A DNA stretch of 60,154 nt, from contig CALVVR010000002.1 in NCBI GenBank assembly GCA_944363915.1, positions 1 to 60,154 of the forward strand, given 5' to 3'. The translations under genes and the position numbers were made by a program. The stretch comes from an uncultured Bacilli bacterium. Lineage in GTDB: Bacteria > Bacillota_I > Bacilli_A > RF39 > UBA660. Positions 5,555 through 24,726 of this stretch are shown here, piece after piece. The notes below the pieces were generated by a model, which ran no database searches, was not told the DNA's origin, and saw only the letters and a program-made list of their open reading frames with translations. Every line of letters begins with the position of its first letter. Position 1 is the stretch's first letter.

Positions 5555-5738
5555 AAAAAAAAAAGTCCAAGAATACGGGGCCCTTAACGATAAAACCTAG
5601 TCTCTACCAGGTGGGCATCACATCATCAACTTTAGGATTCTCAAAATTAATTGAGCGTTCAACACCATCGATGAATTAGATTCCCAATATTCGTTAATTA
5701 GTCGGTTTTTCTAAACGAGCTTATCGCTATTCTTAGAC
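5555..5738 (-). ncRNA. Stand-alone ~175-nt rod-shaped RNA, 6S RNA-like
   Basis: Extended -10 TGATATAAT at 5753-5745 places +1 at G5738. The 5' GUCUAAGAAUA pairs with the 3' UAUUCUUGGAC, followed by a U10 tract (5564-5555). Internal helices are UCAUCGAU/GUUGAUGA, GGG/CCC and an apical hairpin CUCAA-UUAAUU-UUGAG. A large asymmetric internal bubble lies between the closing and apical stems. No coding potential. Confidence 0.6.
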
Positions 5739-5836
5739 ATTTATATTATATCATATTTTTAAATAAATATACTGTTTATAATTAATATTTTCACACTTTC
5801 CCAAAATGTTAATTATTTGTTTTATAAACATAATTG

Positions 5837-7416: not shown

Positions 7417-7440
7417 GCTATTTATTATACATTAAATTTT

Positions 7441-7479
7441 AAAAAATACAAAATAAAATCGATAAATTAATATCGATTT
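7441..7479 (-). terminator. Intrinsic terminator after the SLT-domain gene
   Basis: AAATCGATA-loop-TATCGATTT hairpin overlapping the stop codon, then a U-rich run on the minus strand. Confidence 0.6.
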
Positions 7480-8831
7480 CATAAAATATGATCATTATTA
7501 TCAAGACTAGAAAGAGAAACCTTAATAACATCATTATTGATTAAATTAGTTTGAACAATATTCCCATTTACAATATTGCTACTATAAATACCCAAATAAT
7601 AACCATAGAGATTTTTCAAATAATCACTTGTACCATAATTACCATATTGCCAATTTTTTAAATATTTAATAGTTGCATTATAGTTACTATATTTATTTAG
7701 ATCTAGTGAATTAGCAAAGCCAATTGGATCATTACTAACTTGGCTAACATATTTTAACCAGCCAGTATCTTCATAATTATTAACAACATCATCAAAGGAA
7801 ATTCCTTTTTCATCGGCATATATTTGAATGATTAAATCGACTAATCCATGACCAAAATTATATGATTGAAGAGCTAATTTTTCGTTACCATGATATCGTT
7901 CCAACATATTTTGATAACGCATTACGCCAATTTTTATATTAGTTCTTTTATCTAAGGCATTTTCCATTGTTTCATAAATTGTTTCATATTGATTAGTATT
8001 ATAATTAAACGCTGTCACTTCTTGACCACTAGGTGTTTCTAGCTGACAAATGCCAACACCAAAACCATTATAATTCTCACCACCAGGAATAGTACTTTCA
8101 TGATTTAAACTTGATTCATTCATCATTAAACATAGAAAAGTATAAGGATCTATTCCGAAATCAGAAGAAATCTGAAAAAAATACTTTCCATCATCAGATT
8201 TAATAAAATTTACGATCTTATTTATGGTATATTCATTCATTTTAGTTGATATTGGAATATCTGAATTGTTAGAAATTTGATTATTTACTAATTGATAAGT
8301 CTGATTAATTCTTTGTTCTAATTCAAAATTATCTTCACTAACTAATTGAGGAGTTTCAATAATTTCAAATTCAACTTTGCTTTCTGGTAAATCAGTTTTA
8401 GCATAGTTGCTAGTTTCAACGCCTTTAATATATTCAGTGCCCAAACTTTGATTATCAAAAGAAGTTGTCATACCAATAATTGATGAAGCTAAGATAACGG
8501 TGGTCAAAGCCAAGGTTGCTAATTTCTTATTATTTTTTTTAACTTTTCTAATAATTGGTGTGTTTTCATCAATATTATCTAAAACTTTTCTATATAATAC
8601 TGTGTCAATATTTTGTCTATATCCTTTTAAAATTAAAATATTATTTTTGGAATAAACTATTTTTATGTCATTATTGTTAACTTCGATAAAGCATGGATTA
8701 CTTGATAAACTATCAAGTCCACTTTCAATTCGCATCATACTATTTGTTCTTCTTATTCTCTTTTGACCATTAGTACGATAAGTAGTGGTTTGACGAAAAC
8801 AATTATCAACCTTTTCAATTATGACTTCCAT
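7479..8831 (-). CDS. Membrane-anchored lytic transglycosylase (SLT domain) protein
   Basis: About 100-aa cytoplasmic N-terminus, one TM helix (LATLALTTVILASSIIGM), and a C-terminal SLT-like region (MMNESSLN, GVGICQL, YNFGHG). GAGGTGA RBS before the ATG at 8831. Confidence 0.7.
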   Translation of the reverse strand: MEVIIEKVDNCFRQTTTYRTNGQKRIRRTNSMMRIESGLDSLSSNPCFIEVNNNDIKIVYSKNNILILKGYRQNIDTVLYRKVLDNIDENTPIIRKVKKNNKKLATLALTTVILASSIIGMTTSFDNQSLGTEYIKGVETSNYAKTDLPESKVEFEIIETPQLVSEDNFELEQRINQTYQLVNNQISNNSDIPISTKMNEYTINKIVNFIKSDDGKYFFQISSDFGIDPYTFLCLMMNESSLNHESTIPGGENYNGFGVGICQLETPSGQEVTAFNYNTNQYETIYETMENALDKRTNIKIGVMRYQNMLERYHGNEKLALQSYNFGHGLVDLIIQIYADEKGISFDDVVNNYEDTGWLKYVSQVSNDPIGFANSLDLNKYSNYNATIKYLKNWQYGNYGTSDYLKNLYGYYLGIYSSNIVNGNIVQTNLINNDVIKVSLSSLDNNDHIL

Positions 8832-8837
8832 TAGTAA

Positions 8838-9407
8838 TCACCTCTTTATACTAATACTTATTCCATCTCCAATATCATAAAATGTTGTTATATATTTATC
8901 ATTATTTTTTAAAAAATCGATGTAATCAGATATCTTTCTAACTAGTTGCTTTAAATTACGGCTCATTTTTTCATCACTACCAACTAAACCATGAAATTTA
9001 ATATTATCGGTAATGATATATTTATTATAATTTAAATTTCTTTCAAATTTGTTAAAAAATTTAATACTTTGAGCTTTAGCAGCATCGATAAAAATTAAAT
9101 CAAATTTTTCATCTAATTCAACATTAAAAGCATCTTGATTAATTAATTTAATTCTGTTTTCTAAATTAAGTAATTTAATATTTTTAACAGCTTCTTTATA
9201 TCTTTCATAATCACGTTCAATCGATACAATTTCAACATCTTCATTAACTAAAGCCATTTTAATAGCAGAATAGCCAATCGCTGTTCCGATTTCTAAGATT
9301 TTTTTTATATTATTTTTTTTAATAAAATCAGTTAGAAATTCAATCCCTTCTTTTTGCATAATTGGAATATTATATTCTTTAGCGTATTTTTCAATATTTT
9401 CTAACAT
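8838..9407 (-). CDS. trmR: SAM-dependent O-methyltransferase, YrrM/TrmR family
   Basis: Class I methyltransferase motif ILEIGTAIGYS and the FIDA.K motif. Lies downstream of mltG as B. subtilis yrrM does. An alternative ATG at 9431 has no RBS. Confidence 0.75.
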   Translation of the reverse strand: MLENIEKYAKEYNIPIMQKEGIEFLTDFIKKNNIKKILEIGTAIGYSAIKMALVNEDVEIVSIERDYERYKEAVKNIKLLNLENRIKLINQDAFNVELDEKFDLIFIDAAKAQSIKFFNKFERNLNYNKYIITDNIKFHGLVGSDEKMSRNLKQLVRKISDYIDFLKNNDKYITTFYDIGDGISISIKR

Positions 9408-10453
9408 GCGTATCCTAAATATAGTAAACATTTTTGTTGATGTTCAGGATATGTTTCAGAGTAGTAAGTTTTAGTTGAACTACTATCATAAACATTAGCT
9501 AAAAAGTATAAATAATTATTTGGCTCGGGATATAAAACAGCTTTAATACTTGCTTCACCAGGAGAATTGCCAGGCCCTACTGGTAATCCATAATAAACAT
9601 AAGTATTATAAGGAGAATCAACAGCTAAATCGGCATTGGTATATGTTAATTTCCACTCGTCAATTGCATATCCAATAGTCGCACAACTTTGTAATTTCAT
9701 ACCTTGATTTAAACGGTTATAGAAAACTTGAGCTATCATTGGACGATCCTCATCTAAAATTGCCTCATTTTCAACAATTGAAGCTAAAGTTAATAATTCA
9801 TGAACCGTATAATCACTATTTTCAATTTCTGTTTTATATTTAGATAAAACTTCATCCATCTTATCTAACATTTTATAAGTAATTTCTTCCATACTACTAT
9901 CTTTAAATATTTCATAAGTTGCTGGGAAAAAATAACCTTCTAAATTGTATCTCAAATTATCATTTTTAACTTCATCAGTAATAAACCAATATTTATTGAT
10001 TAATGTATCTAATAATTCTTCACTTTGCCAATAATTTAATAATTCTTCACTACTATAATCAGTTACTTCACTAATGTAAGTAGCAACATCAGTAATATGT
10101 CTTCCTTCAGGAATAACAAAGGATATTGTTTCTGCTTCAGTACCTTGTTCTAAAGTGTTGATGATTTCTTTGACTCCCATATTGCGGTTTAAAGTATAAG
10201 TACCTTTTTCTAAATTACTAGGGTTGAATATTTTAACATATATTTTATAAAATGTTTCTGAGCGAATTAAATTATTTTCTTTTAAAATTGGAGCTATTGA
10301 TAAATATGTACTGTTTTCTTTTACTTCAAAAATTACTTCTTGACTTTCTTTACTAACTGGACTAATTCCAAAATTATAAGATATACAACCAACAACAATA
10401 ATAATTGCTAAAATAACAATAACAAAAATATAAATATTAACGTACTTCTTCAT
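9401..10453 (-). CDS. mltG: Endolytic murein transglycosylase MltG (YceG family)
   Basis: N-terminal TM anchor plus conserved YceG motifs (ASIVENEA, NRL...M.LQS, SPYNTY...GLP.GPI-like). Confidence 0.9.
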   Translation of the reverse strand: MKKYVNIYIFVIVILAIIIVVGCISYNFGISPVSKESQEVIFEVKENSTYLSIAPILKENNLIRSETFYKIYVKIFNPSNLEKGTYTLNRNMGVKEIINTLEQGTEAETISFVIPEGRHITDVATYISEVTDYSSEELLNYWQSEELLDTLINKYWFITDEVKNDNLRYNLEGYFFPATYEIFKDSSMEEITYKMLDKMDEVLSKYKTEIENSDYTVHELLTLASIVENEAILDEDRPMIAQVFYNRLNQGMKLQSCATIGYAIDEWKLTYTNADLAVDSPYNTYVYYGLPVGPGNSPGEASIKAVLYPEPNNYLYFLANVYDSSSTKTYYSETYPEHQQKCLLYLGYAC

Positions 10454-10461
10454 AATATAAA

Positions 10462-10479
10462 GCGAGTAATTTTACTCGC
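10462..10479 (-). terminator. Hairpin between yrzB and mltG (possible attenuator or weak terminator)
   Basis: GCGAGUAA-AA-UUACUCGC encloses the yrzB stop codon and is followed by UUUAUAUU before the mltG ATG. Confidence 0.4.
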
Positions 10480-10762
10480 CATCCTCCATATTAGATTTAA
10501 CTTCTTCTTGTAATTCATTTAAAATTGTCTCTATTATCTTCCATTCTTTTTCGGTTTCAATAGCGGTTAAGTTTAAATTTTCTTCGTTTGGTGTATATAT
10601 TGAAGCATACACTTTAGTATTTCCTTGTTCATCAGTAGTATTATCAGTATATACAATATAATTTTTACCAGTTTCATCTGATTCAAAAGTAAATAAAACT
10701 TCACACTCTATTTCTTTTCCTTTATCATCAATTACTTTAAATTTCATTTGTTCTTCTTTCAT
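10472..10762 (-). CDS. yrzB: DUF1292 / UPF0473 protein (YrzB family)
   Basis: Acidic ~95-aa protein with the characteristic YIVYTD... pattern. Conserved position after ruvX. Confidence 0.8.
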   Translation of the reverse strand: MKEEQMKFKVIDDKGKEIECEVLFTFESDETGKNYIVYTDNTTDEQGNTKVYASIYTPNEENLNLTAIETEKEWKIIETILNELQEEVKSNMEDGE

Positions 10763-12240: not shown

Positions 12241-12741
12241 TTACAAATCAAATTTGTAAATATTTTCTATAATGTTCAATCCACCAACATTCCCATCTTC
12301 ACTGTCGATTATTTTTCCACCTAATGCCGTGTAAAAATTTTCAGATGGATTTCCTTTTAAACATCTAACTATTATATTTTTATATCCCATATTTTTTAAC
12401 AAATCAAAACATTCTGTAATTAATTCTTTACCAATACCTTTTCTTTGATTTTCTTTTTCTATATATATTGAATAAACTTCACCCATATCTACATAATCAT
12501 TTCCACGTCCTTTACCATAGCAAGCAAATCCCAATATGTTATTGTCTTCTTCATAAACAATATAATGATATTCATTATCTTTTTCTATAGCTTCTTTTAT
12601 ATTATTATTTCTTTGTTCAAAATTTTTTTCTTGATTTATAAATATTTTTTCAGGAAAAAACTCACTATAGGTTGTCTTCCATGAATTTATATGTATTCTA
12701 GTTATTTTTTTTGAATCATTAACTTTTGCTTTTCTAATCAT
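12241..12741 (-). CDS. GNAT family N-acetyltransferase
   Basis: Motif A QRKGIGKELI and typical GNAT length. AGGAGG RBS overlaps the stop codon of the upstream amidohydrolase gene. Confidence 0.85.
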   Translation of the reverse strand: MIRKAKVNDSKKITRIHINSWKTTYSEFFPEKIFINQEKNFEQRNNNIKEAIEKDNEYHYIVYEEDNNILGFACYGKGRGNDYVDMGEVYSIYIEKENQRKGIGKELITECFDLLKNMGYKNIIVRCLKGNPSENFYTALGGKIIDSEDGNVGGLNIIENIYKFDL

Positions 12742-12749
12742 TTTTCCTC

Positions 12750-13727
12750 CTATTTTCCAAACAAATAATCTATATTATTATCTGTTGTTATTTTTTTATA
12801 TACGTTTATAGGTAATCTTTGAAATACCTTTACATTTTCTCCATAAATATTACTTAATTCTTTATCTATATTTGATTCAAGATATCCACAATAACTCCAT
12901 GGATAATCTGTACCAAATAATACTTTATTTGAAAAATTATTGCAGAAGAACATCACAAATTCATGAATATTATTTATACTATTTTTTATAAAATAATCAT
13001 CATTTTGTTTTTTTAATAGTTCGTATAGTTTAATTATAGGAGATAAATCAAACCATGTATTTTTTAAATCATTAATTTCTGTTAAAAAACTTTCATCTAA
13101 TCTAGCAACGTGTGCAATACAAAATCTAACATTTTTTAATTCTTTTACTAACGAAAGACATGATTTACCAGAACTATATTTATCACTTGCCGAATGAATC
13201 ATTATTGGTAAATTTTCCTTTTCTAAAAAAGATTTTAATTTATCATCATACAATATTGTACTAATATTTTTTCTATCAGTAGTAGGGTTTATCTTAAAGC
13301 CATAAATATTATATTTTTCTTTCAGTTTTAAATATGTTTCAATTTGTTCATCAATTTTAGAGTATAAACTAAGCATTATAAATGGCAATATTTGGCCATT
13401 ACCAAATATAAGAGTTTCATTTAATAATCTTTGATTTTCAAAAAAATATGGATGTTTTTCATATGATTCAATAACTTTCCTAATATCTTTATCTATATTA
13501 GGGCTACTATGTGTATCTATATTAGTAGGAACGGGAAATGTAACTGAATAATCTATGTTATTTTTTTGCATATTTGTTACTAAATCACTTATATTATTGC
13601 AATATGGAAATGCTCCAAGATAATAATTAGTGAAATTAATTCCTACCGCATGAGTATGTATATCTATACATTTATCACTTAGAATTTCTCTACTTATTTT
13701 GCTTTTCGTAATCAATACAACAATCAT
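12750..13727 (-). CDS. Amidohydrolase_2-type metal-dependent TIM-barrel hydrolase/decarboxylase family protein
   Basis: N-terminal DIHTH (HxH metal motif), internal HSA/AHV histidines and C-terminal GTDYPW, as in PF04909-like proteins. Start is uncertain; the ORF overlaps the upstream gene by 38 nt. Confidence 0.75.
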   Translation of the reverse strand: MIVVLITKSKISREILSDKCIDIHTHAVGINFTNYYLGAFPYCNNISDLVTNMQKNNIDYSVTFPVPTNIDTHSSPNIDKDIRKVIESYEKHPYFFENQRLLNETLIFGNGQILPFIMLSLYSKIDEQIETYLKLKEKYNIYGFKINPTTDRKNISTILYDDKLKSFLEKENLPIMIHSASDKYSSGKSCLSLVKELKNVRFCIAHVARLDESFLTEINDLKNTWFDLSPIIKLYELLKKQNDDYFIKNSINNIHEFVMFFCNNFSNKVLFGTDYPWSYCGYLESNIDKELSNIYGENVKVFQRLPINVYKKITTDNNIDYLFGK

Positions 13728-14649
13728 CCCCTTCTAAATAATTACTAGTTGCACTATATGCTCTAGCTCTGCAACCACCACATATATATTTTTTTTTACA
13801 CTCACCACATTTGCCCATTAGATTATCACGATTATTTAAAGCTATTATAATTTTATTTGTTAAAATTTCTTCTAAACTTTTTTCCTGCAAATTTCCAAGT
13901 AGAATTCTCATTCTAACACAAGGATAAACATTAAAATTTGAATCTATACAAATTGCTTTTGTTCCTGCACTACAACCCGTTATTAAATTATTATTAAAAT
14001 ATTTCAACTCATTATTACAAAAACTTATAGGATCACTACAATCTATATGTTCTTGAATTATATAACTCTTTAATCTACACATTTGTTCAGGCGTTATCAT
14101 CGATAAGTCTTTACCACGTCCACATGGAGTGACAATTTCCAAAGCAAATTTTACATTTAATTCTTTTGCAAGAGAATTAACTTCTTCTATTTCATCGTAA
14201 TTTATTGTACTAACTGCCATCATTATAGAAAAATTGCTATTTACTTTTTGTATTCTTTTTATAAATTTTAAACTTTTTTCATAAGTATTTAATCCTCTTA
14301 TTTTTTCATGTGTTTCTTTTTTTCCATCTATACTTACTTGAATTAAATCAAACATTTTAAAAATATCAACATCTTTTACATTATCTAATGTACCATTAGT
14401 TGTTAAAGCTATAAAAGGAATATTATATTTTTTTAATATAGAAACATATTGTTTTATTTTATCTCCTATCATCAAAGGTTCTCCACCTGAAATCACTATT
14501 TTTGTGCAACCTTGATTATATAATTCTTCAACTACCTTTTCAAATTTATTTAAGTTCATTGTTATCTTTTCTTTAAAAAGTCCATAACAATGTTTACACT
14601 TCAAATTACAAAAGTTTGTTATTTCTAAAATCGCTAATTCTATTCTCAT
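13690..14649 (-). CDS. Radical SAM/SPASM domain peptide-modifying enzyme (rSAM-3)
   Basis: EITNFCNLKCKHC (CX3CX2C), ISGGEPL, and a C-terminal SPASM region CSAG..C...YPC and CGECKKKYICGGC. ATGA overlap with the PqqD gene. Confidence 0.9.
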   Translation of the reverse strand: MRIELAILEITNFCNLKCKHCYGLFKEKITMNLNKFEKVVEELYNQGCTKIVISGGEPLMIGDKIKQYVSILKKYNIPFIALTTNGTLDNVKDVDIFKMFDLIQVSIDGKKETHEKIRGLNTYEKSLKFIKRIQKVNSNFSIMMAVSTINYDEIEEVNSLAKELNVKFALEIVTPCGRGKDLSMITPEQMCRLKSYIIQEHIDCSDPISFCNNELKYFNNNLITGCSAGTKAICIDSNFNVYPCVRMRILLGNLQEKSLEEILTNKIIIALNNRDNLMGKCGECKKKYICGGCRARAYSATSNYLEGDDCCIDYEKQNK

Positions 14650-14915
14650 ATTAGCTCAATAATTTCTTGCGATAACATTTCATTTATAAATGCTACTACA
14701 ACTTTCTCAATATCTTCTCTAGCATTTTGGCAATAATCTTCTAATGCTAAAATTGAATCAATGATCTCATTAACTGTATTATCACCAGTACACTTTTCCC
14801 ATAAAAATGTTTCCATTTCTTCAAGAACAATTATGCAATGTTCACCTTGTATTATAGTGTTAACATCTTCTTTTCTTTGAATTAATTTTACGTTGGGAAA
14901 TCTATGATAACTCAT
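14646..14915 (-). CDS. PqqD-family peptide chaperone (RiPP recognition element)
   Basis: About 89 aa with a PqqD-like pattern (..LEEMETFLWEKCTG.NTVNEIIDSI...Y......ED.....FI.E.L...I). ATGA overlaps at both ends. An alternative ATG at 14954 lies inside the upstream gene. Confidence 0.8.
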   Translation of the reverse strand: MSYHRFPNVKLIQRKEDVNTIIQGEHCIIVLEEMETFLWEKCTGDNTVNEIIDSILALEDYCQNAREDIEKVVVAFINEMLSQEIIELI

Positions 14916-15898
14916 TTGCTTTGGCTTTTTATCCAACAATACGGATCTTTGCATAAATAATCTCCTTTCAATGTGTACGAAAGACCTCTACACCCTCCAG
15001 CACAATCCTTCTTATATTTACATATTTTACATTCTTCTTTGAGTTTATTTACATCATTAATTTCATCAAAAAATTTATTTTGCCATATTTCTTCTATTGT
15101 TTCATTATAAATATTTCCAACTGTTTTATTTAATAAAGCGCAAGGAATTGCATCACCATTAGCTTTAATTACTAAACATAATTTGCCAACCAAACATGGA
15201 CATACGGCTTTTTCTGATATAGCCATTAATGGTGAATCAATCGCTATTTCAACGCCAGTCTCTTCACTGATTTTTTTGTGATTTTCTATCAAATATTTCC
15301 ATTCGTCAACAGATAACATTTCTAAATTTGACTGTTTTCCTCTTCCTATTTTTACATAAGGCATCAACCTTAGTTTGTTTACCCTAAATGACTTGGCATC
15401 ATTTATTATTTGGTCTAAATATTTAATATTTTTTTTGTGTAATACAGTAACTAAATTTGTAATAATCCCTCTATTTACTGCTTTTATGATATTATTTTTT
15501 ACTATATCATATTTATTAGTTCCTCTTATAAGAGAATAAATATCTTCATTTGGTCCGTCATAACTAATCCTTAAAGTTGCCTCATTTTCTTTTAATAACT
15601 CTAATATTCTTTCATTCAGTAAATAACCATTTGAAGCAACACTAATGTTCATATTACTTTCATAAGCATATTTTATAATATCTTCAAAATCTTTATGTAA
15701 TAAAGGTTCTCCTCCACTAAAATCTAAACATACAATCCCCTTACTTTGCATATAATCAATTATTTCTTTTATTTTTGTATATGGCATTTCTGTCATATTT
15801 TTAAGTTCTGATTCATTTATGCAATGTACACATGCGAAATTACATTTGTTAGTAATTTCTACACTTATTTGTGATGGATATTTGAATCTATAAATCAT
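14912..15898 (-). CDS. Radical SAM/SPASM domain peptide-modifying enzyme (rSAM-2)
   Basis: EITNKCNFACVHC, FSGGEPLLH, and SPASM motifs CPCLVGKLCLVIKANGDAIPC and CKICKYKKDCAGGC. ATG at 15898. Confidence 0.9.
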   Translation of the reverse strand: MIYRFKYPSQISVEITNKCNFACVHCINESELKNMTEMPYTKIKEIIDYMQSKGIVCLDFSGGEPLLHKDFEDIIKYAYESNMNISVASNGYLLNERILELLKENEATLRISYDGPNEDIYSLIRGTNKYDIVKNNIIKAVNRGIITNLVTVLHKKNIKYLDQIINDAKSFRVNKLRLMPYVKIGRGKQSNLEMLSVDEWKYLIENHKKISEETGVEIAIDSPLMAISEKAVCPCLVGKLCLVIKANGDAIPCALLNKTVGNIYNETIEEIWQNKFFDEINDVNKLKEECKICKYKKDCAGGCRGLSYTLKGDYLCKDPYCWIKSQSK

Positions 15899-16852
15899 TA
15901 AAACACCCACTTTCCACTTCTTTATAACTGCCTTTTTGTAAATAAGATTTCCCTCTACAACCACCATTGCATTTTTCCCTTTTGCTGCATAATTTACATT
16001 GCGAATTAAATACTCTAGGTTCGTGAAATTCTTTTAATATTGTAGAGTTATTCCATATATCATACAATGTGTTATATTTTACATTTCCACACTTTACTTT
16101 GTTCTCACCTAAAAACATAACACAGGGGTAAACACCATAGTCAGCACCAATTACACAGGAGGTTATACCAGCCATACAATTAACATTTTCTACTTTTTCA
16201 TTTTGCTCTCCAATTATTAATTTATTTCCTAATTTTTTGGTCATATATGATAGTGTTTCTTTGTATTTTATATCATCTATATATAAATTTTGATTTTGCA
16301 AAGAATTACCAAGAGGTTTTACTTTCATCAATTTAGCTTTTAAGTCGTTTTCAATTATAAAATCTATAAATTCATCTACACATTTTAAATTTAATGGCGT
16401 TAACAAATAACCGACGTAAACATCAATATTTAAGCTTTTGCATAGTTTTATGCAGTTGATAGTTTTAGAAAATGTTTTCTTACTATTTTTATGATAACTA
16501 TCAATTTCATCATTCATGCCTGTTAATGTAATAAAAATGCAATTTATATTATTTTTTTTAACTTTTTAGCAATTTTTTCATCTATTAATGAACCATTGGT
16601 AGTTAAATTCCATGTTATATTATTTTCTGCGAGTGATTTTATTATTGAACTAAAGTCTTTATGTAATAACGGTTCTCCACCAGAAATATTAACACTAAAT
16701 ATATTATTTGTCCTTAATTCATTAATTAAAGATTCAATTACATTTATACTTAGTTCATCACGTTCTTTAATTAATCCGTTTCTACAATATAAACAATTAT
16801 AATTACATTTGTACGTCAAATCTATTTCTATATTTAATGGAAATTTAAACAT
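15888..16852 (-). pseudogene. Radical SAM/SPASM enzyme (rSAM-1) split by a 1-nt frameshift in an A8 tract
   Basis: The N-terminal fragment (16852-16544) has YKCNYNCLYC and SGGEPLLH. The C-terminal fragment (16517-15888) has SPASM motifs CMAGITSCVIGADYGVYPC and CKLCSKREKCNGGC. One extra A in the A8 run (16552-16559) fuses them in frame (..KKLKKNNINCIFITLTGMNDEID..). AGGAGG RBS at 16859-16864. Confidence 0.8.
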
Positions 16853-16897
16853 ATCTTGCCTCCTCAAAACTTGAATCTACTAAGTGATGAAGGAATC

Positions 16898-16972
16898 CTA
16901 CCCTCCACCGTTAACATTCATTGAACATGCTGCATAAGTAATAACTTTTAAATTCAATTTTAGTTTTTTCAT
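16898..16972 (-). CDS. Candidate 24-aa precursor peptide MKKLKLNLKVITYAACSMNVNGGG
   Basis: Unannotated small ORF in the only gap of the operon. Its ATG overlaps the TGA of the upstream SPASM-only gene (ATGA), with GGAGGTG 4 nt upstream. Basic amphipathic N-terminal half and a Gly-rich C-terminus. TAG stop at 16898. Confidence 0.6.
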   Translation of the reverse strand: MKKLKLNLKVITYAACSMNVNGGG

Positions 16973-17823
16973 GTTACACCTCCTTTCATACCACAATATT
17001 TATTGCAATTTTTTGTTCTATGTATAGGACAACCACCAAAACACATATCAAATTTTTCACAAAAATTTTTTGGCATATAATCTTTATATAAATTATTAAA
17101 AATATCGTTTAGATTGTAATCTTTAATATTATATTTATAATTTGTTTTTTCTTTATAACAGAGTTTTCCATACCCTTCAACATCTATGCATAACAAACAT
17201 ATAAATCCCGGACAGATTCCTTGTAAATTTTCATATCTAATTGCTGCACATGGCATATCATATAACACCTTTAATGGAAAATTATTTTTTAACAAACTTA
17301 AGTTATTTGCTAATTCCCAATAATCTTTTACAATTATATTATTTTTTATATTTATATTAAAAATATAAGGCATTCTCTCGATTAATGGTTTTAACTTATA
17401 CTTAAAATCATCAATATTACTTATTTCATTAATAAAAATAATATCGTTACAATCTGTTTTAAAATTTTCATATAAACTATTAATATATTCTTCTTCTATT
17501 TTATTTATAACAAATCTGAATTGATTTATTTTATCTTTCATACTAAGTAAATTATTATTTTTACTCATTCCTTTTATTGTTAAAGAAATGCTTTTATTCA
17601 TTTTTTTTAATATAGTAACTACTTGATCTAACAAATCCACATTTATATTTTTACTATTTATAACAATAGATATCATTTTTGTTTCAGCATCTATTTTATT
17701 AGTTATTTCAAATATTGTTTTCTTTGAAACGTGTTTTGTTTTATTATTAAACTCGATTTCCAGCATATATAGTTTCCTATACTTCAAAACAAGAAATTTA
17801 TCTTGTAAACAAATATCTGACAA
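16969..17823 (-). CDS. SPASM-domain protein lacking the radical SAM cluster and GGE motifs (rSAM pseudoenzyme)
   Basis: The N-terminus aligns to the rSAM paralogs but reads EITNKIDAETKMI where they have EITN.C...C..C. The C-terminus is Cys-rich (PCAA..GICPGFICLLC..GKLC, then FCEKFDMCFGGCPIH..NCNKYCG). TTG start at 17823 lies 6 nt after AGGTGA; an alternative ATG is 19 codons downstream. Confidence 0.75.
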   Translation of the reverse strand: MSDICLQDKFLVLKYRKLYMLEIEFNNKTKHVSKKTIFEITNKIDAETKMISIVINSKNINVDLLDQVVTILKKMNKSISLTIKGMSKNNNLLSMKDKINQFRFVINKIEEEYINSLYENFKTDCNDIIFINEISNIDDFKYKLKPLIERMPYIFNINIKNNIIVKDYWELANNLSLLKNNFPLKVLYDMPCAAIRYENLQGICPGFICLLCIDVEGYGKLCYKEKTNYKYNIKDYNLNDIFNNLYKDYMPKNFCEKFDMCFGGCPIHRTKNCNKYCGMKGGVT

Positions 17824-18214
17824 TTTTGATCACCTACTTTTTTGTTATTAAATCAATTTCTAATATTTCCTACTAAATTCTTTTATCTTTCTTTTAATTC
17901 AACTGGACTTTATCTATCTCTTGGTCCATATGACAAATCATCAGTAACATTCTAATTCTATATTTATTTTGTAATACATAATCTACTGGGACATATTCAT
18001 CAAAACACCTTCAATTATTATCATATTTATTATTTAGGGCAGAATAGAAACATAATAATATTTGTAAAGTATTGATTTCTAGCATTTGTTTTTTTACATG
18101 GTTAATAATTAATTCACCAATTAGTTTTATCATACTAAAAAATTTAAACAATATTTTACTACTTAACAAAAATGTCAATAGCTTCATAATTAAAAATTAA
18201 TATCTAAAATACAT

Positions 18215-20155
18215 CTAAGGCTGATTATTTAGATCAATTCTTTGGCAATCTTTTACTGTGTATTCTTCATTAGTTCTTGAATCGTATACATATGTTACCA
18301 TTTGTGATTTATTTATTTCCTCTTCTTTTTTAGTAAATATCTTTTCTATCTTTTCTTTTACCTGTTCTTTGTTAAATGGCTTTGATATGTAATCGACAAA
18401 TCCTTCTTTTATATATTTTTCTCTTGCCCCTGATACCGCATCAGCTGTTAAAGCTATTACTGGCGTTTTAAATTCTGGATTTTCTTTTAATTTTGCTAAA
18501 GCACTTTCGCCACTCATAACAGGCATCATAATATCCATCAATATTAAATCATATTCTTTTTCTTTTACTTTTTCTAAACACTCTAACCCATCATGACATT
18601 CTTCTATTGCAAAATTAAAATCTTGTAATGCTTTGATTGCTACTTTGATGTTTAATTTATTATCATCGACTATCAAGATCTTTTTGCCTGATAAATCTTT
18701 TTGGTTTTCAATCGGTAACGCATTTATATCTATCTTCTCACTTTGATGCTTACTTATTTTTTGTGGTAAATAAACGATGAATATAGATCCTTTGCCAAAC
18801 TGACTTTGAACGTTTATCTTACCGCCCATCATCTCTACTAATGATTTAGTAATAGCTAGTCCCAATCCTGTTCCTTCAGTCGTGGAATTCATCTCAACAT
18901 CTAATCTTTCAAATTTAGTAAATAATTTATTTATATTTTCTGCTTTTATCCCTCTTCCTGTATCTTGAACGCTTATAATTAATTTACATATATCTTTTTC
19001 ATTAATACACTTTACACTTAATGTTATATTCCCTTGCTCAGTATATTTAATAGCGTTTGACAGTAAATTGTTTACTACTTGTTTTATATGGATTTTATCT
19101 CCTATTAATTCTTCTGGTATATCTGGTGCTATATCAAGTTTAAACTCAATTGGTTTATCTTTTATTCTAGTTGTTGTTACCTTACAAAGCGATATTATTT
19201 CTTCTTTTAAGTTATATGGTTTAGTTATGATTTCCATCTTTTCTGATTCGATCTTATTTATATCTAAAATATTACCCACTATTTCCAATAATGTCTGTGA
19301 AGCATTTAGAATGTCAGTTATATCTAAAGCAACTTCGTTTGGCACTTGATCTTTATAACTCGCAATATCTTCGCTTAAACCAACGATAGCATTTAATGGC
19401 GTTCTGATCTCATGAGACATACTACTTAAAAAATCACTTTTGGCTCGATTTGCTTTTTCTGCCATATCTTTAGCTAATGTCATCTGTTGTAACATCTTAA
19501 CATCTGGGTTTTCGATTGTAAAATACATTATCAATACTGCAATAGCATGTGACGGAATTAACAATAACAAATCATGATATTTAATTTGAACAATAACACT
19601 TATAATTGCAAGAAATATTCCGATAAAAATTGGTAACGATTTTTTAGTCTTTAGCGTTTTAAATCTGAGTATACTAAGAATTGCCACAAATAAAATTCCA
19701 ATTCCACCAATAAAATACGAAAAATTTGTCGCTGGCCCAACTGGATATAAGAAATTATCTGAATTTGAATAATTAAATGGTAAAAACGAGATAATTATTG
19801 CAAAAACAAAATAAATTATCGTTTCAACAATTACAAAATTTTTAAAAATTTTACTTTCATTTTTTAATGCAAAACAGGCAGCAAAAACATACATTATGAA
19901 AAAGTACATAAAAACAACATAATATAAAAATATTACTCTCCCTAACACATATATTATCGAAGAATCAATACTTTGACCATTTAAAACCAAATAATATGTA
20001 AAAAACTCTAATAATAATCCTATCATCGATGAAAAGGACAAAAACTTAAAGCAACGATTATCAATATTATCTATTCTTTCCTTAGTGTTAAAGTCTATTA
20101 TTAATATCAGAATTACCACGATAAAACAGACACTTGCCGTAAGGTTTATATACAT
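18215..20155 (-). CDS. Hybrid sensor histidine kinase / response regulator with a multi-TM N-terminal sensor
   Basis: About 6-7 predicted TM helices, HisKA SHEIRTPLNAI, HATPase (N-box NAIKYT, GTGLGLAI) and a C-terminal receiver (ILIVDDN...LILMDIMMP...K). ATG at 20155 after GGAGAG; the ORF-track start at 20170 has no RBS. Confidence 0.9.
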   Translation of the reverse strand: MYINLTASVCFIVVILILIIDFNTKERIDNIDNRCFKFLSFSSMIGLLLEFFTYYLVLNGQSIDSSIIYVLGRVIFLYYVVFMYFFIMYVFAACFALKNESKIFKNFVIVETIIYFVFAIIISFLPFNYSNSDNFLYPVGPATNFSYFIGGIGILFVAILSILRFKTLKTKKSLPIFIGIFLAIISVIVQIKYHDLLLLIPSHAIAVLIMYFTIENPDVKMLQQMTLAKDMAEKANRAKSDFLSSMSHEIRTPLNAIVGLSEDIASYKDQVPNEVALDITDILNASQTLLEIVGNILDINKIESEKMEIITKPYNLKEEIISLCKVTTTRIKDKPIEFKLDIAPDIPEELIGDKIHIKQVVNNLLSNAIKYTEQGNITLSVKCINEKDICKLIISVQDTGRGIKAENINKLFTKFERLDVEMNSTTEGTGLGLAITKSLVEMMGGKINVQSQFGKGSIFIVYLPQKISKHQSEKIDINALPIENQKDLSGKKILIVDDNKLNIKVAIKALQDFNFAIEECHDGLECLEKVKEKEYDLILMDIMMPVMSGESALAKLKENPEFKTPVIALTADAVSGAREKYIKEGFVDYISKPFNKEQVKEKIEKIFTKKEEEINKSQMVTYVYDSRTNEEYTVKDCQRIDLNNQP

Positions 20156-20228
20156 CAAACCACTCTCCATATTTTTTATTAATGTATACTATGTAATCTA
20201 CTAACAATGATAAGTATCAATTAAACTA

Positions 20229-22115
20229 TCATCTCACCAATTTTTTTGTCTTTGTTTTTATTTCGTTAATATTAACGATTCCACTCGACGTTTTCCCAGA
20301 TTTAGAATATTTCTTCTTAACAAATGTAAAGTTGTCATTTGGAAAATAATATGAATCATAATCATTTTTTAATAATTGATAATCTCTTTTACCTGTCACT
20401 TCACTCACTTCAAAACTGTCATATATTTTAATTCCATCTAAATTATACTTTTCGCACAAATATTTTATTACTTCATCTTCTTTACCAATGAATTCGTTTT
20501 TTAAAACGACTTGTCCTACTACATCGTATTTACCATAATCAGTTTTAAAAGCAGTAATTTCCCATTCGATAATTGGATCTTCTAATGATAAAGAATATTC
20601 TATATCAAATAAATATTTTGTTTGGCCGTTTTCATCAACATAAGAATCTGACGAACGTCCTAACATGCTATATGAATCGTCTTCATTTTGAATCGCAATA
20701 TCTCCTAAATCGGCCCATCTAATACCGTTTTCATCATAATAATAGTAATTATCGGTGGCCTTTTTGTTATTTAAATATCTGTTAGCTGAAGCGGCACTGC
20801 TTATATGAATAATTCCTCTTTCTCCCTTTTTGACCTCTTTTCCAGTAATAGGATCTACAATTTTTACAAACACTCCTGGTATAGGATATCCTGTTTCGTT
20901 TGTCTTGGTTTCGGGGTTTAATTCATAACTTGTCAAAGCACTTGAACCAACCTCGCCAGATCCTCCACCGATTGCAATCTTTTCTTTACAACCAGCTCTT
21001 TTTAACCAGTCGTTTATTAAATAAACATTACTTTTAGTTATTGGTTCACCGCCTGAACATGGTCTTGATAATGATGAAAGTTCACCAGGCTTAATGTTGT
21101 TTTGTGCAACGGCTTCTAAATAAAAACTGGCCGCTGACAATGTATGATTTATATTAAAATCTCTTAAATCTGTCGCAAATGTTCTCTTATCGTATATTGG
21201 TTGTAAAACCAACGTTTTTCCCTTTGCCATCTGAAGAAATATAGCATAAAACATTCCAGTTGCGTGTGAAGGTGGTATTACAACTAACGAACGTTCACCA
21301 ACAAAATCCCTCAAATTTAATCCTTTATGCATTTCTATAATAGCATTAGGTGATTGCTCACTAAAAACTATACATTTTGGTGCGCCTGTCGTCCCACTAG
21401 TATAAGAATAAATCGAATCTTTTTCAATATCAACTTTGGGATAAATAACTTCATTTCTATTATCTTTACCAGCCTTTATAATTTCACTCATTTTTATAAA
21501 ATTAACATTTTTTAAATTTCGTATTTCTTTGATACAAGCAGAAAGCTGATCTTTGTCTTTTAGCACTTCCCTTATTTTTGATGGTAATTTTGATAAATCA
21601 TTAAAGTATGTTTTCTGTTCTTCTGGTAAATAATCATTTAAAGATGTTAAAATAACATTTTTTATATTAGCGTTTCTTATCTTATCTACTATCAATGGTA
21701 AATAAACGTCTAAAATTATTAATGTATGTGAATTTTTTTTAAGAGTATATCTAGCTAGGTCATTTCTTAAAAACAAAAAGTTAACATTGTTACTAATTAC
21801 TCCTAAGTTACAAGTCGCAAATAAAGATAAAATGTATTCATTACTAACTGGCATACTCATAGTTACTACTGAATCTTTTTTTATTCCAAGACTATCAAAT
21901 CCTTTAGCATACTCAGCAACTACTTTGGGTAATTGACCATAAGTTATTTTATTGCCAAAATATTCTAATGCAGTCGTATTTAAATTATGTTGGTTCCATG
22001 ACATAATATTTTGAAAGGTATTGATGTTATACAAATCGATACCATTAATTGTTTTTACTTTTTTTGAGTTACTTGGTAATTCTCTTGTTAATTTATATGT
22101 CGGTATTTTTTCCAT
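20229..22115 (-). CDS. AMP-dependent synthetase/ligase (ANL superfamily) with a ~100-aa C-terminal extension
   Basis: YSYTSGTTGAPK AMP-binding motif, GGGSGE.G and downstream ANL core features. GGGGGA RBS. Own extended -10 promoter (TGTTATAAT) in 22116-22322. Confidence 0.85.
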   Translation of the reverse strand: MEKIPTYKLTRELPSNSKKVKTINGIDLYNINTFQNIMSWNQHNLNTTALEYFGNKITYGQLPKVVAEYAKGFDSLGIKKDSVVTMSMPVSNEYILSLFATCNLGVISNNVNFLFLRNDLARYTLKKNSHTLIILDVYLPLIVDKIRNANIKNVILTSLNDYLPEEQKTYFNDLSKLPSKIREVLKDKDQLSACIKEIRNLKNVNFIKMSEIIKAGKDNRNEVIYPKVDIEKDSIYSYTSGTTGAPKCIVFSEQSPNAIIEMHKGLNLRDFVGERSLVVIPPSHATGMFYAIFLQMAKGKTLVLQPIYDKRTFATDLRDFNINHTLSAASFYLEAVAQNNIKPGELSSLSRPCSGGEPITKSNVYLINDWLKRAGCKEKIAIGGGSGEVGSSALTSYELNPETKTNETGYPIPGVFVKIVDPITGKEVKKGERGIIHISSAASANRYLNNKKATDNYYYYDENGIRWADLGDIAIQNEDDSYSMLGRSSDSYVDENGQTKYLFDIEYSLSLEDPIIEWEITAFKTDYGKYDVVGQVVLKNEFIGKEDEVIKYLCEKYNLDGIKIYDSFEVSEVTGKRDYQLLKNDYDSYYFPNDNFTFVKKKYSKSGKTSSGIVNINEIKTKTKKLVR

Positions 22116-22322: not shown

Positions 22323-24074
22323 CTATTCTAAAATAGCCTTTATTCTTCTAACCCCTGCACTACTAGCTTCTTCTTTAATGATTTTAAATTTACCTAATTC
22401 TTTAGTATTTTTAACATGTGGACCACCACATAATTCTTTAGAAATATCGCCAATACTATAAACAGTTACAATATCAGGATATTTTTCAATGAACATACAT
22501 TCAGCTCCAGATTTTAATGCTTCTTCCTTACTCATTTCAGTTACTGTTACGTCTAGTCCTTCATTAATCCATTTATTAACTAGATCCTCTGTTTTTTGCT
22601 TTTCTTCATCAGTTAATTTATGATCACATGAAAAGTCAAAACGCATTCTTTCGCTAGTAATATTACTTCCTTTTTGATGGACATTTTTATCAACTACAAT
22701 TTTTAAAGCTGCGTTTAACAAATGCGTAGCAGTGTGGTATTTTATTTCTTTTTCAGAGTCACCAGCTAAGCCACCTTTAAATTTACCACTAGAAGACGTT
22801 CTTGATAATTCTTGATGAGCTTTAAACTTTTCTTTAAAACCTTCAACATCGACGTTAATTCCTTGTTCACTAGCTAATTCAACAGTTAACTCAATTGGGA
22901 AACCATATGTATCATATAATTTGAAAGCTAAATCTTTATTTAATGTTTTAGTATCTAAATGACTAGTTATTTTTTCAAATTCTTTTAAACCTTTAGCTAA
23001 TGTTTTATTAAACTTAATTTTTTCATTAGTTAATCCTTCTAAAATAGCTTCTTTATTTTTAGTTAATTCTGGATAATATTTTGCATATTCTTCAATTATC
23101 ATATTAGCAATAATGACTTCCCAATTACTATTTTCATCAATCTCTAATTTTTTAGCATGTCTAATTGCTCTTCTAATTAATCTTCTTAAAATATATCCTT
23201 GATCAGTATTAGATGGTTTAATACCTGCTTCATCACCTAAGATAAATACAGCTGTTCTGATATGATCAGCAATAATACGCATACTAGTTGGATTTTCTTC
23301 ATAACTATATTTAGATAATTCTTCTATTTTTTTAATAATATTGATCCATACACTTGATAAATAATTATCATCAACGCCTTCTAAAACAGCAACTACTCTT
23401 TCATATCCCATACCTGTATCAACGTTTTTTTGAGGAAGTTCTGTTATATTTCCATTACTATCTTTATAAAATTCCATAAAAACATTGTTCCATATTTCAA
23501 CCCATCTATCATCTTTGGGATCAAATTTTTGAGGTATTTCGTCATTACTCCTAAAATAAAATATTTCTGTATCTGGACCACATGGACCAGTTTCCCCAGC
23601 AATCCAAAAATTATCTTCTTTTCCTAAATAAGCGATTCTATCTTCACTTATTCCTAAACTTTTCCAAGTTTTGGCTGAAACATCATCACGAGGTATTTTC
23701 CCTTCACCAGCAAAAACAGTTACAGCTAATCTTTCTAAAGGAATATTTAATACTTTGGTTAAAAATTCAAAACTATAACCAATACTTTCTTTTTTAAAAT
23801 AATCACCTAATGACCAATTACCTAACATTTCAAAAAAAGTATGATGTGTTTTATCGCCAATACTATCTAAATCATTAGTTCTAATACATTTTTGATAATC
23901 GACCAATCTTTTTCCATAAGGATGAGGTTGCCCCATTAAATATGGAATCAAAGGTTGCATACCAGCAGTATTAAATAAAACGGAAGGATCATTTTCCGGT
24001 ACAACTGGCGCTGACGGAATTTGCTTATGTCCTTTACTTACAAAAAAATCTATATATAAATCTTTAAGATTCAT
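22323..24074 (-). CDS. alaS: Alanine--tRNA ligase, short form ending after the editing domain
   Basis: N-terminal class II AlaRS motifs (F..KGH...PS..VVP.NDP..LF.NAGM) and editing-domain HTATHLL and CGGPHV. Terminates at ..GVRRIKAILE with no C-Ala domain. ATG at 24074 after GAGGGTGA. Confidence 0.9.
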   Translation of the reverse strand: MNLKDLYIDFFVSKGHKQIPSAPVVPENDPSVLFNTAGMQPLIPYLMGQPHPYGKRLVDYQKCIRTNDLDSIGDKTHHTFFEMLGNWSLGDYFKKESIGYSFEFLTKVLNIPLERLAVTVFAGEGKIPRDDVSAKTWKSLGISEDRIAYLGKEDNFWIAGETGPCGPDTEIFYFRSNDEIPQKFDPKDDRWVEIWNNVFMEFYKDSNGNITELPQKNVDTGMGYERVVAVLEGVDDNYLSSVWINIIKKIEELSKYSYEENPTSMRIIADHIRTAVFILGDEAGIKPSNTDQGYILRRLIRRAIRHAKKLEIDENSNWEVIIANMIIEEYAKYYPELTKNKEAILEGLTNEKIKFNKTLAKGLKEFEKITSHLDTKTLNKDLAFKLYDTYGFPIELTVELASEQGINVDVEGFKEKFKAHQELSRTSSSGKFKGGLAGDSEKEIKYHTATHLLNAALKIVVDKNVHQKGSNITSERMRFDFSCDHKLTDEEKQKTEDLVNKWINEGLDVTVTEMSKEEALKSGAECMFIEKYPDIVTVYSIGDISKELCGGPHVKNTKELGKFKIIKEEASSAGVRRIKAILE

Positions 24075-24726
24075 TCTTATCACCCTCTATTACTTCAATA
24101 AATTTATCAACAACTTCATCAATTGTCATATTAGTTGAATCGATATAAACTTGTTCATCAGTTCTTTTTAAAGCTCCAACTTCTTTATGCATATCGTTAT
24201 AATCACGAGATTTGATATTTTCATAAACTTCATCATAAGTCATATCAATACCTTTTTCTTTATTTTGTTTAATTCTTCTTGCAACTCTTTCTTCTAATGA
24301 AGCGTCCAAATAAAATTTGTATTTAGCATTGGGAAAAACAACAGTTGTTATATCTCTACCTTCCATGACAACATCATAATCACTAGCCATTTTTCTTTGT
24401 AAATCAACCATATTTTCTCTTACTTCGACAATGCTAGAAATTGGTGAAACAATATTAGTTACTTCTTTACTTCTAATTTCATCAGTAACATCTTCACCGT
24501 TTAAATAAACTTTATTATCTAAATCAATTTTAATATTAATTTCACTAGATAATTTTATTATTTCTTCTTTATCATCTAAAGATAAATTGTTACGTAAACA
24601 AGCTAAAGCCACACAACGATATGTTGCTCCTGTATCAATATTTACTAAATTACATTTTTTCGATAATATACTAGCGATAGTTCCTTTACCACTACCAGCT
24701 GGCCCATCAATAGCTACTACTCTCAT
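24064..24726 (-). CDS. cmk: Cytidylate kinase
   Basis: IAIDGPAGSGKGT P-loop and ..IDTGA.YR motif. Confidence 0.92.
   Translation of the reverse strand: MRVVAIDGPAGSGKGTIASILSKKCNLVNIDTGATYRCVALACLRNNLSLDDKEEIIKLSSEINIKIDLDNKVYLNGEDVTDEIRSKEVTNIVSPISSIVEVRENMVDLQRKMASDYDVVMEGRDITTVVFPNAKYKFYLDASLEERVARRIKQNKEKGIDMTYDEVYENIKSRDYNDMHKEVGALKRTDEQVYIDSTNMTIDEVVDKFIEVIEGDKNES

Follow-up and report, generated by a model that had tools for sequence, protein, structure and literature searches.

We report that a 24-codon open reading frame (ORF) on the minus strand of the window, the whole 60,154-nucleotide (nt) stretch of contig CALVVR010000002.1 from an uncultured Bacilli bacterium, is very probably a real, translated gene. 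Its product would be the precursor peptide of an undescribed modification pathway of uncultured gut Bacilli, in which radical S-adenosylmethionine (rSAM) enzymes of the rSAM/SPASM type are combined with a PqqD protein. The peptide is under strong purifying selection and strictly co-located with the enzyme set, and it is translationally coupled to, or placed tightly behind, the gene of an rSAM-like protein (hereafter pseudo-rSAM), with a strong ribosome-binding site; in most lineages a stem-loop comes after it. The initial annotation, made from the DNA alone, had proposed this ORF as a precursor for the neighbouring rSAM and PqqD genes, and the conserved frame beside homologous enzymes supports that proposal. 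The elements at the locus are as follows.

16898..16972, minus strand: precursor gene of 24 codons plus TAG stop, encoding MKKLKLNLKVITYAACSMNVNGGG (sequence read, conservation, synonymous bias)
16937..16972, minus strand: putative leader, precursor codons 1-12
16904..16936, minus strand: constrained core of the precursor, Tyr13-Gly23
16977..16983, minus strand: Shine-Dalgarno sequence GGAGGTG, 4 nt 5' of the precursor ATG
16886..16909, minus strand: weak stem-loop of 9 pairs (3 of them G-U), covering the last three precursor codons, the stop and the start of the spacer (z=-1.65)
16969..17823, minus strand: pseudo-rSAM gene, 284 amino acids (aa), its stop overlapping the peptide start (AlphaFold2 model, Foldseek, family alignment)

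Read 5' to 3', the minus-strand DNA at the ORF is ...AAAGGAGGTGTAACATGAAAAAACTAAAATTGAATTTAAAAGTTATTACTTATGCAGCATGTTCAATGAATGTTAACGGTGGAGGGTAG, and a longer read across the locus is AAAGGAGGTGTAACATGAAAAAACTA...GGTGGAGGGTAG. The ATG lies at 16972..16970 and the TAG at 16900..16898. The pseudo-rSAM gene ends in ...GGT GTA ACA TGA, with the TGA at 16971..16969, and this creates the ATGA overlap of start and stop (16972/16969) that had been described initially. The GGAGGTG reported 4 nt upstream of the ATG was likewise found, at 16983..16977, within the final pseudo-rSAM codons (K-G-G-V). The ORF had also been said to occupy the only intergenic gap of the operon. This was borne out, as 117 nt separate the 284-aa gene from the next rSAM gene, the sole sizeable gap, whereas the remaining junctions are overlaps of 4-43 nt or 8-nt spacing. 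A mechanical ORF list starts the frame further upstream, at TTG 16996. The size of the ORF is by itself uninformative, because 126 ORFs of at least 20 aa occur in the 14 kb of 26%-GC DNA around it; what raises it above chance is its conservation.

Conservation was assessed in the window and ten further lineages, which provided 12 distinct nucleotide versions of the ORF. Contigs of close relatives were fetched at pseudo-rSAM identities of 84, 74, 70 and 64% (L001, L002, L004 and L005), and those of distant relatives at 48, 41, 32, 31, 28 and 23%; the distant lineages in the comparison were L095, L098 (two copies), L099, L101, L102, L103 and L106. The distant relatives came from an exhaustive profile search; a word-indexed homology search with the wide alignment added no more than one short contig. 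With one exception, the fetched contigs shared the order pseudo-rSAM, gap, rSAM, rSAM, PqqD, rSAM. The initial annotation had singled out YAACSMNVNGGG in particular as a place to look for conservation, and each of the ten further lineages retrieved with this gene order has the small ORF at the corresponding place, with no frame-breaking indels in the related clusters. The peptides are listed below.

Window and L002: MKKLKLNLKVITYAACSMNVNGGG
L001 and L095: ending in ...NVNSGG
L004: MKKLKLHLKVITYAACSLNVNAGG
L005: MKKLKLKVKVINYAACSMNVNAGN
L098, copy 1: MKKLILKVQVITYAACAVNVNAGS
L098, copy 2: MKQLILNVQIIKYAACAINVNSGDDDEPPGG
L099, L100 and L103: VKKLVLKV(N/K)VITYAACSLNVSSGS
L101: MKKLTLKVKVITYAACTINSNAGA
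L102: MKKLVLKLHVITYAACAINTMSGN
L106: MNKVNQTNKNNINKILNLKVNKFKYAGCTMNVNSGN

Alignment of the retrieved ORFs revealed that K2, L4, L6, Y13, A14, C16, N19 and G23 are invariant and that positions 10-11 are I or V. The constrained core follows the pattern Y-A-(A/G)-C-x-(M/L/I/V)-N-x-x-x-G. Start, stop and length are kept in 10 of the 13 distinct peptide sequences, the length being nearly always 24 codons. The C-terminus varies between G-G-G, S-G-x and an acidic tail. Thus the Gly3 tail emphasized at first is present in the window and one relative but is not a conserved feature, Gly23 alone being invariant. Lineage L098 carries two tandem, non-identical precursor genes (1273..1347 and 1377..1469), and an acidic C-terminal extension follows the core (GDDDEPPGG / GDGDEPGD) in its copy 2 and in the database proteins P0022 and P0024. 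GGAGGTG precedes the small ORF everywhere except in L005 (GGAGAT) and L106 (GGAGGTA), which have weaker variants. The ATGA overlap is retained in seven lineages; elsewhere the ORF lies 17-68 nt past the upstream stop or overlaps it. The last pseudo-rSAM residues, K-G-G-V/D, are encoded by the precursor's Shine-Dalgarno region AAAGGAGGTG (window 16969..16985, minus strand; also L095, L098 and L101), and this C-terminal KGG(V/D) is conserved because it encodes the translation signal for the next gene.

The peptide is confined to this setting. A six-frame scan of 426 kb with the expression Y[AG][AG]C.[MLIVF]N gave one match per cluster, two in L098, and none elsewhere. A back-translated DNA pattern of the peptide alone matched a single locus in a metagenome collection, directly 3' of a pseudo-rSAM gene, and a scan of viral contigs with the peptide pattern gave 0 matches. 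A peptide-profile search of 5.8e9 proteins, led by a 45-aa in-frame extension whose added columns were insert states, retrieved four called proteins, all with the core; two of these were new and carry the acidic ending ...NVNAGDGDEPGD. Gene callers overlook this precursor, the called versions being only those of 30-36 aa. No NCBIfam model matched the peptides at E<=10, and neither the motif nor a cluster of this kind was found in the searchable literature.

We then considered whether the interval is maintained for what it does as RNA or DNA (a hairpin, a ribosome-binding site or an unrecognized riboswitch) and its open frame is incidental, as the Shine-Dalgarno sequence and the hairpin are indeed conserved features of it. 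The substitutions argue otherwise. Bias toward synonymous sites, named in the initial annotation as a mark of a genuine gene, was evident: by the Nei-Gojobori method, pN/pS among five close lineages was 0-0.3 in the frame of the ORF (frame 0), and the other two frames showed no synonymous bias. Variable sites at codon positions 1/2/3 numbered 10/6/22 among the 12 versions, and the minimum changes were 15/9/39 (an indicative binomial P=3e-6). Third positions varied in 22 of 23 codons while the amino acids stayed fixed, and several synonymous codons are used at invariant residues (three for Ala14, four for Ala15, two for Cys16, two for Asn19 and three for Gly23). The maintained start, stop and length point in the same direction, Rfam gave no match at the ORF, and the spacer past its stop diverges freely. 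Relative to L004, the peptide was the most conserved cluster product in six of nine lineage comparisons and the pseudo-rSAM the least conserved; between L095 and L004, identity was 88% for the peptide, 69-76% for the rSAM enzymes and 48% for the pseudo-rSAM. The codon-position pattern, the free divergence of the spacer and the conservation of the peptide together rule out an incidental frame with conservation at the RNA level, and we regard that explanation as effectively refuted.

A stem-loop 3' of the precursor gene gives many pqq operons, and many operons for peptides that are made on the ribosome and modified after translation (RiPPs), a surplus of precursor transcript. The weak stem-loop of the window has counterparts at or just past the precursor stop in seven other lineages (z from -2.6 to -4.6), and the one in L101 is a canonical terminator with a 13-bp stem and T8. 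In L005 and L106 no stem-loop was found after the precursor, and the peptide is nevertheless retained. A promoter and terminator scan was uninformative in this AT-rich DNA, returning 47 sites against 56 expected and no terminator. A short ORF followed by a stem-loop or terminator, 5' of enzyme genes, would also suit a regulatory leader peptide that attenuates the downstream rSAM genes through the stem-loop. We consider this highly improbable. In attenuator leader peptides, conservation is concentrated on a few regulatory codons, whereas here an 11-residue core has stayed fixed across lineages whose enzymes share no more than 42-54% identity, and in most lineages no cluster product is better conserved than the peptide. 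Moreover, no alternative anti-terminator pairing was evident, and the two lineages without the stem-loop keep the peptide.

As a precursor gene, the ORF is part of an eight-gene minus-strand operon in the order pseudo-rSAM, peptide, rSAM 1, rSAM 2, PqqD, rSAM 3, amidohydrolase and GNAT. The genes downstream of the peptide are given below.

15888..16852, minus strand: rSAM/SPASM enzyme 1, split into 102 + 209 aa in this strain and intact at 321 aa in relatives
14912..15898, minus strand: rSAM/SPASM enzyme 2, 328 aa if counted from the start that relatives use, with Radical_SAM and SPASM domains and no N-terminal RiPP recognition element (RRE)
14646..14954, minus strand: discrete member of the PqqD family, 102 aa, presumed to be the RRE or chaperone that binds the leader (PF05402, 30.2 bits; gathering score 23.4)
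13690..14649, minus strand: rSAM/SPASM enzyme 3, 319 aa, with Radical_SAM and SPASM domains and no N-terminal RRE
12750..13727, minus strand: metallo-hydrolase of the Amidohydrolase_2 type, 325 aa (PF04909, Amidohydro_2, 27.5 bits)
12241..12741, minus strand: GNAT acetyltransferase, 166 aa (PF00583, E 5.5e-15)

The three rSAM/SPASM enzymes keep the CxxxCxxC, GGEP and Cx2Cx5Cx3C motifs, and their Radical_SAM and SPASM Pfam matches are above the gathering score. The features of the superfamily (CxxxCxxC, GGE and a seven-Cys SPASM region) were found in all three, enzyme 1 being frameshifted in this strain. Since the proteins begin directly at CxxxCxxC, they have no RRE of their own. They are paralogous, with 30% identity between enzymes 1 and 2 and 26-29% between enzyme 3 and the other two. 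The closest solved relatives of intact enzyme 1 are SuiB, CteB, PqqE, anSME and SkfB, SuiB being its best match in the PDB. No cluster protein reached the cut-off of any curated NCBIfam family; the top match was GeoRSP_rSAM (157.7 bits against 400, enzyme 2, full length), followed by AhbD/NirJ-like, MftC, PqqE and WgkB. PqqD is present in every lineage and is highly conserved. The amidohydrolase follows rSAM 3 in 7 of the 11 lineages, and in five of these (the window, L001, L004, L095 and L099) GNAT comes next, as the final cluster gene. Alignment showed that the metal ligands of the amidohydrolase (D-x-H-x-H, H178, H206 and D274) are invariant, and a PDB sequence search with its profile found no relative. 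In the gene contexts of the related clusters, no protease, exporter, immunity gene or partner oxidoreductase was conserved.

The upstream gene had initially been described as SPASM-only. An AlphaFold2 model built from 16 relatives (pLDDT 84, pTM 0.84; confident at residues 10-250, with low confidence in the C-terminal 35 residues) contradicted this description. The best PDB matches of the model in Foldseek were SuiB and PqqE (E 6e-6 and 1e-5; TM 0.57-0.62), and because they extend over about 300 columns, the protein is a whole rSAM/SPASM-like protein. The protein has neither a GGE motif nor CxxxCxxC, its beta1 loop (..LEIEFNNKTKHV..) being free of Cys. Its C-terminus is rich in cysteine, with 10 Cys invariant in close relatives and six throughout the family (C204, C222, C255, C261, C265 and C277). 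The SPASM model TIGR04085 is matched by 6 of 16 family members. The window protein matched no Pfam or NCBIfam model, and a PDB sequence search with the family profile gave no match. Such a pseudo-rSAM is incapable of cleaving S-adenosylmethionine and probably retains the ability to bind an auxiliary cluster.

The tight translational coupling of the peptide to the pseudo-rSAM, which suggests 1:1 synthesis, raises another explanation, namely that the peptide is no substrate but serves the pseudo-rSAM or an rSAM complex as a small accessory subunit or as a partner in cofactor binding, for instance by contributing its Cys to an Fe-S cluster, and is conserved on that account. The single invariant Cys would agree with such a role, as would the lack of a conserved protease or exporter. 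On the other hand, a discrete PqqD is invariably present, and the known role of such proteins is to present precursor peptides to rSAM/SPASM enzymes (PMC10114670). The tandem non-identical copies of one lineage and the acidic C-terminal extensions are typical of precursor genes rather than of structural subunits, and the stem-loop or terminator past the gene implies that more peptide is made than enzyme. We therefore give the accessory-subunit explanation only a slim chance, and prefer a precursor peptide.

How such a precursor might be processed can be proposed by analogy. In the PqqA/PqqD/PqqE and MftA/MftB/MftC systems, a short peptide is served by a discrete PqqD chaperone, which presents it to an rSAM/SPASM enzyme without an RRE (PMC10114670). 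Here, PqqD would bind the N-terminal dozen residues, MKKLxLKVxVIT, in which basic and hydrophobic residues alternate, and present them as the leader; such docking fits the high conservation of PqqD and, within the peptide, the invariance of K2, L4 and L6 and the restriction of positions 10-11 to I or V. Each rSAM/SPASM paralogue would depend on PqqD, as none has its own RRE, and each may install one radical-mediated modification in the core Y13-A-A-C16-x-x-N19-x-x-x-G23. Reaction is likely at Tyr13, Cys16 and Asn19, three invariant residues at a spacing of i, i+3 and i+6. Enzymes of the rSAM-SPASM kind are known to form Cys thioethers and C-C links to Tyr C3, the latter in cyclophane formation, and PqqE joins a Glu to a Tyr of PqqA (PMC10114670). 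The core could plausibly acquire a thioether from its Cys to a carbon of a side chain or of the backbone, and a cross-link, C-C or C-O, to the ring of its Tyr. The pseudo-rSAM, synthesized in step with the peptide, most likely acts as a scaffold or partner subunit that holds the peptide or an Fe-S cluster, and the amidohydrolase and GNAT, where present, may trim and acetylate the product. Because conserved genes for a dedicated protease, an exporter or immunity are lacking, a small molecule that derives from the peptide and stays inside the cell is as conceivable a product as a secreted peptide.

The closest parallels are with PQQ (pyrroloquinoline quinone) and mycofactocin. Like the PQQ system, the cluster has a very short precursor (about 24 aa) in which a Tyr is invariant, a discrete PqqD and rSAM/SPASM enzymes of about 320-380 aa without an RRE of their own; a stem-loop follows the precursor, genes for export or immunity are absent, and PqqE ranks among the best matches both by structure and by sequence. 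It differs in that the Glu-x3-Tyr of PqqA does not occur, the 24-aa peptides containing no Glu and having the core Y-A-A-C, and in that PqqB, PqqC and PqqF are absent from the cluster, which has three rSAM paralogues and a pseudo-rSAM instead of one enzyme. Scores against the PqqE model (109 and 62 bits, cut-off 381) and the PqqD model (20.4 bits, cut-off 46) were far below these equivalog cut-offs. With mycofactocin the cluster shares a short precursor, a discrete PqqD-like chaperone, RRE-less rSAM/SPASM enzymes, the lack of an exporter and, as we propose here, a peptide-derived small molecule released by a hydrolase. However, MftC acts on a C-terminal Val-Tyr (PMC10114670), whereas here the Tyr lies inside the peptide, the C-terminal end of which varies and can be extended. 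MftC was matched with 113 bits against a cut-off of 265, and MftD, MftE and MftF are absent from the cluster.

On the basis of the discrete PqqD, the RRE-less rSAM enzymes and the lack of a protease and exporter, it is plausible that the precursor stands nearer to PqqA and MftA than to bacteriocin precursors, as was proposed initially on grounds of size; streptococcal rSAM-RiPP precursors are equally short. A more specific version is that the peptide is the precursor of a cofactor-like small molecule, made by three successive rSAM reactions at Tyr13, Cys16 and Asn19 on the pseudo-rSAM scaffold, excised by the amidohydrolase and acetylated by GNAT. This we find rather doubtful and put forward tentatively. 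If true, it would be a third peptide-derived cofactor-like molecule beside PQQ and mycofactocin, found in strictly anaerobic, uncultured gut Bacilli. It would also bring new cross-link chemistry, such as a radical-installed Tyr-Cys or Cys-Asn link, and the first functional role for a pseudo-rSAM protein.

Other known systems were also compared. According to NCBIfam descriptions, the GeoRSP cassette comprises an rSAM/SPASM enzyme (TIGR04303), a SPASM-domain protein (TIGR04304) and a PqqD protein. The combination of rSAM/SPASM enzymes, a SPASM-type protein of about 290 aa without the rSAM motif, and PqqD recalls that cassette, the make-up of which is taken from the family descriptions; GeoRSP_rSAM is the best family match of enzyme 2, and two or three pseudo-rSAM members match GeoRSP models weakly. 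Nevertheless, the enzyme 2 score of 157.7 bits compares with a cut-off of 400 for TIGR04303, TIGR04304 (cut-off 300 bits) was matched by just 2 of 16 relatives at E about 1e-3, and the window pseudo-rSAM gave no match. Three rSAM paralogues, different hosts and a defined precursor further set the present cluster apart. TIGR04150 (GG-Bacteroidales) and TIGR04347 (Haloplasma) likewise describe proteins that keep the SPASM region, have lost the cysteines of the SAM cluster and stand beside true rSAM enzymes. The window protein matches neither. TIGR04150 was weakly matched by 1 of 16 family members (E 3e-4), and it is the true rSAM enzymes that match TIGR04347, with 46-85 bits where the cut-off is 525.

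The streptococcal and microbiome rSAM-RiPPs (streptide with SuiB/StrB, tryglysin with WgkB, and NxxC with NxxcB) are similar in the length of their precursors (20-30 aa), in the short core motif that these keep invariant and in their rSAM/SPASM enzymes that cross-link side chains, and SuiB is the best PDB match of both enzyme 1 and the pseudo-rSAM fold. Their enzymes are single and have a fused N-terminal RRE, and their clusters contain exporters or proteases and shp/rgg regulators. In the present family, fused RRE, exporter or protease, and shp/rgg are not conserved; WgkB was among the top NCBIfam matches, yet with 57-114 bits against a cut-off of 650. Sactipeptide and ranthipeptide systems share rSAM/SPASM enzymes with two auxiliary clusters, an invariant core Cys and a C-x-x-N spacing like that of short thioether motifs. 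They differ in having several Cys rather than one, the AlbA, StsB, PapB and SCIFF maturase models scored far below cut-off, and no bacteriocin-type leader, protease or ABC transporter occurs here. Taken together, the system works like PQQ- or mycofactocin-type rSAM-PqqD maturation and resembles GeoRSP in its SPASM-type pseudo-enzyme, and it was assigned to no known family by any family-specific test that we ran, whether on motifs, on curated scores or on accessory genes. It is an undescribed family of the rSAM-RiPP type with an unusual enzyme set.

Several points weigh against this interpretation. With about 11 related lineages and 12 distinct ORF sequences, the substitution statistics are indicative rather than exact. 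Both the chemistry and the class of the product are inferred throughout. With its single Cys the peptide could form no more than one thioether link, and the amidohydrolase and GNAT, missing from L005, L101 and L106, are not obligatory. In the window, enzyme 1 carries a 1-nt deletion at an A8 run (16552..16559, minus strand), and because all contigs of this strain are identical across the 5.6-kb cluster, with the lesion fixed in each, continued selection on this copy of enzyme 1 is not demonstrable.

The deletion raises the question of whether the window copy is a relic, in which loss of enzyme 1 has inactivated the pathway and the peptide is not fully matured. Every other lineage has an intact 321-aa enzyme 1, and the identical lesion is shared by three independent assemblies (L009, L010 and L011). 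Against a relic, however, the deletion is the sole lesion; both halves of enzyme 1 are open, and the remaining genes and the peptide are intact. In the zero frame the site reads TTA AAA AAA ATA and so contains A_AAA_AAA, a heptamer of the classic kind for -1 slippage; either a -1 slip or transcriptional slippage from A8 to A9 would restore the ancestral 321-aa frame exactly. The strain was also recovered in several samples. We think a relic quite possible but lean against it. The pathway of the window may be attenuated or partly defective, with the enzyme 1 gene either rescued or newly broken, and even a relic would be compatible with the conclusion drawn for the family, that the ORF encodes a precursor peptide.

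The precursor gene adds a well-supported and hitherto unannotated precursor to a rare and uncharacterized radical-SAM pathway seen only in uncultured gut bacteria, and shows that the key gene of a cluster can escape gene callers. Its product is small enough to be synthesized, and the core Y-A-A-C-x-x-N matches no searched curated precursor or maturase model and no literature motif. For enzyme chemistry, the appeal lies in three paralogous rSAM/SPASM enzymes proposed to act on about 11 residues, and in a catalytically dead rSAM paralogue that is co-translated with the substrate and could reveal what pseudo-rSAM proteins do.

The pseudo-rSAM family forms five clusters at 90% identity among 5.8 billion proteins, and the exhaustive profile search found 16 representatives among 1.84 billion proteins. 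No relative emerged when the pseudo-rSAM profile was scanned against the genomes that represent species in GTDB. The window itself is ordinary chromosome, with aminoacyl-tRNA ligases, a PASTA kinase and 6S RNA. Its glycyl-tRNA synthetase is 92% identical to that of one metagenome-assembled genome (MAG) and 80-86% identical to those of rabbit, ruminant and human gut MAGs, among them 'Acholeplasma sp. CAG:878' and Ca. Faecisoma. The cluster occurs at differing genomic sites and behaves as a mobile accessory island.

In the window, the cluster is flanked by a hybrid histidine kinase (18215..20170) and an AMP-binding enzyme (20229..22115), both on the minus strand. In L005, a split kinase homologue (38-51% identity) and an AMP-binding enzyme (24%) lie on the opposite side of the cluster (6054..10658). 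We rejected both as core parts of the system, as the AMP-binding enzymes of different lineages are just 24-33% identical and both genes are absent from most lineages; a regulatory link is possible but not supported. The 390-nt interval between the kinase and pseudo-rSAM genes contains a 58-aa ORF, MKLLTFLLSSKILFKFF..., at 18011..18187 (minus strand), which is a called gene in one related assembly (L011) and was not seen in other lineages.

Elsewhere the neighbours of the cluster vary, with a serine recombinase in L095 (6264..7925), a tyrosine integrase and Mob relaxase in L004 (7535..10125) and a type I restriction system adjoining the cluster in L101 (12267..16147). Two further contigs, L104 and L105, were rejected as family members on account of a different gene set and the lack of a YAAC peptide. 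Their cluster (908..6012 in L104) is RiPP-like and includes PqqD, an rSAM/SPASM enzyme, the remote pseudo-rSAM P0013, a C39-peptidase-like protein, a B12-binding rSAM and ThiF. Away from the cluster, the window holds a 6S RNA gene (77 bits) at 5560..5742 on the minus strand, and, at 22323..24083 on the same strand, a 586-aa alanine-tRNA ligase of the PRK01584 type, without the usual C-terminal extension.

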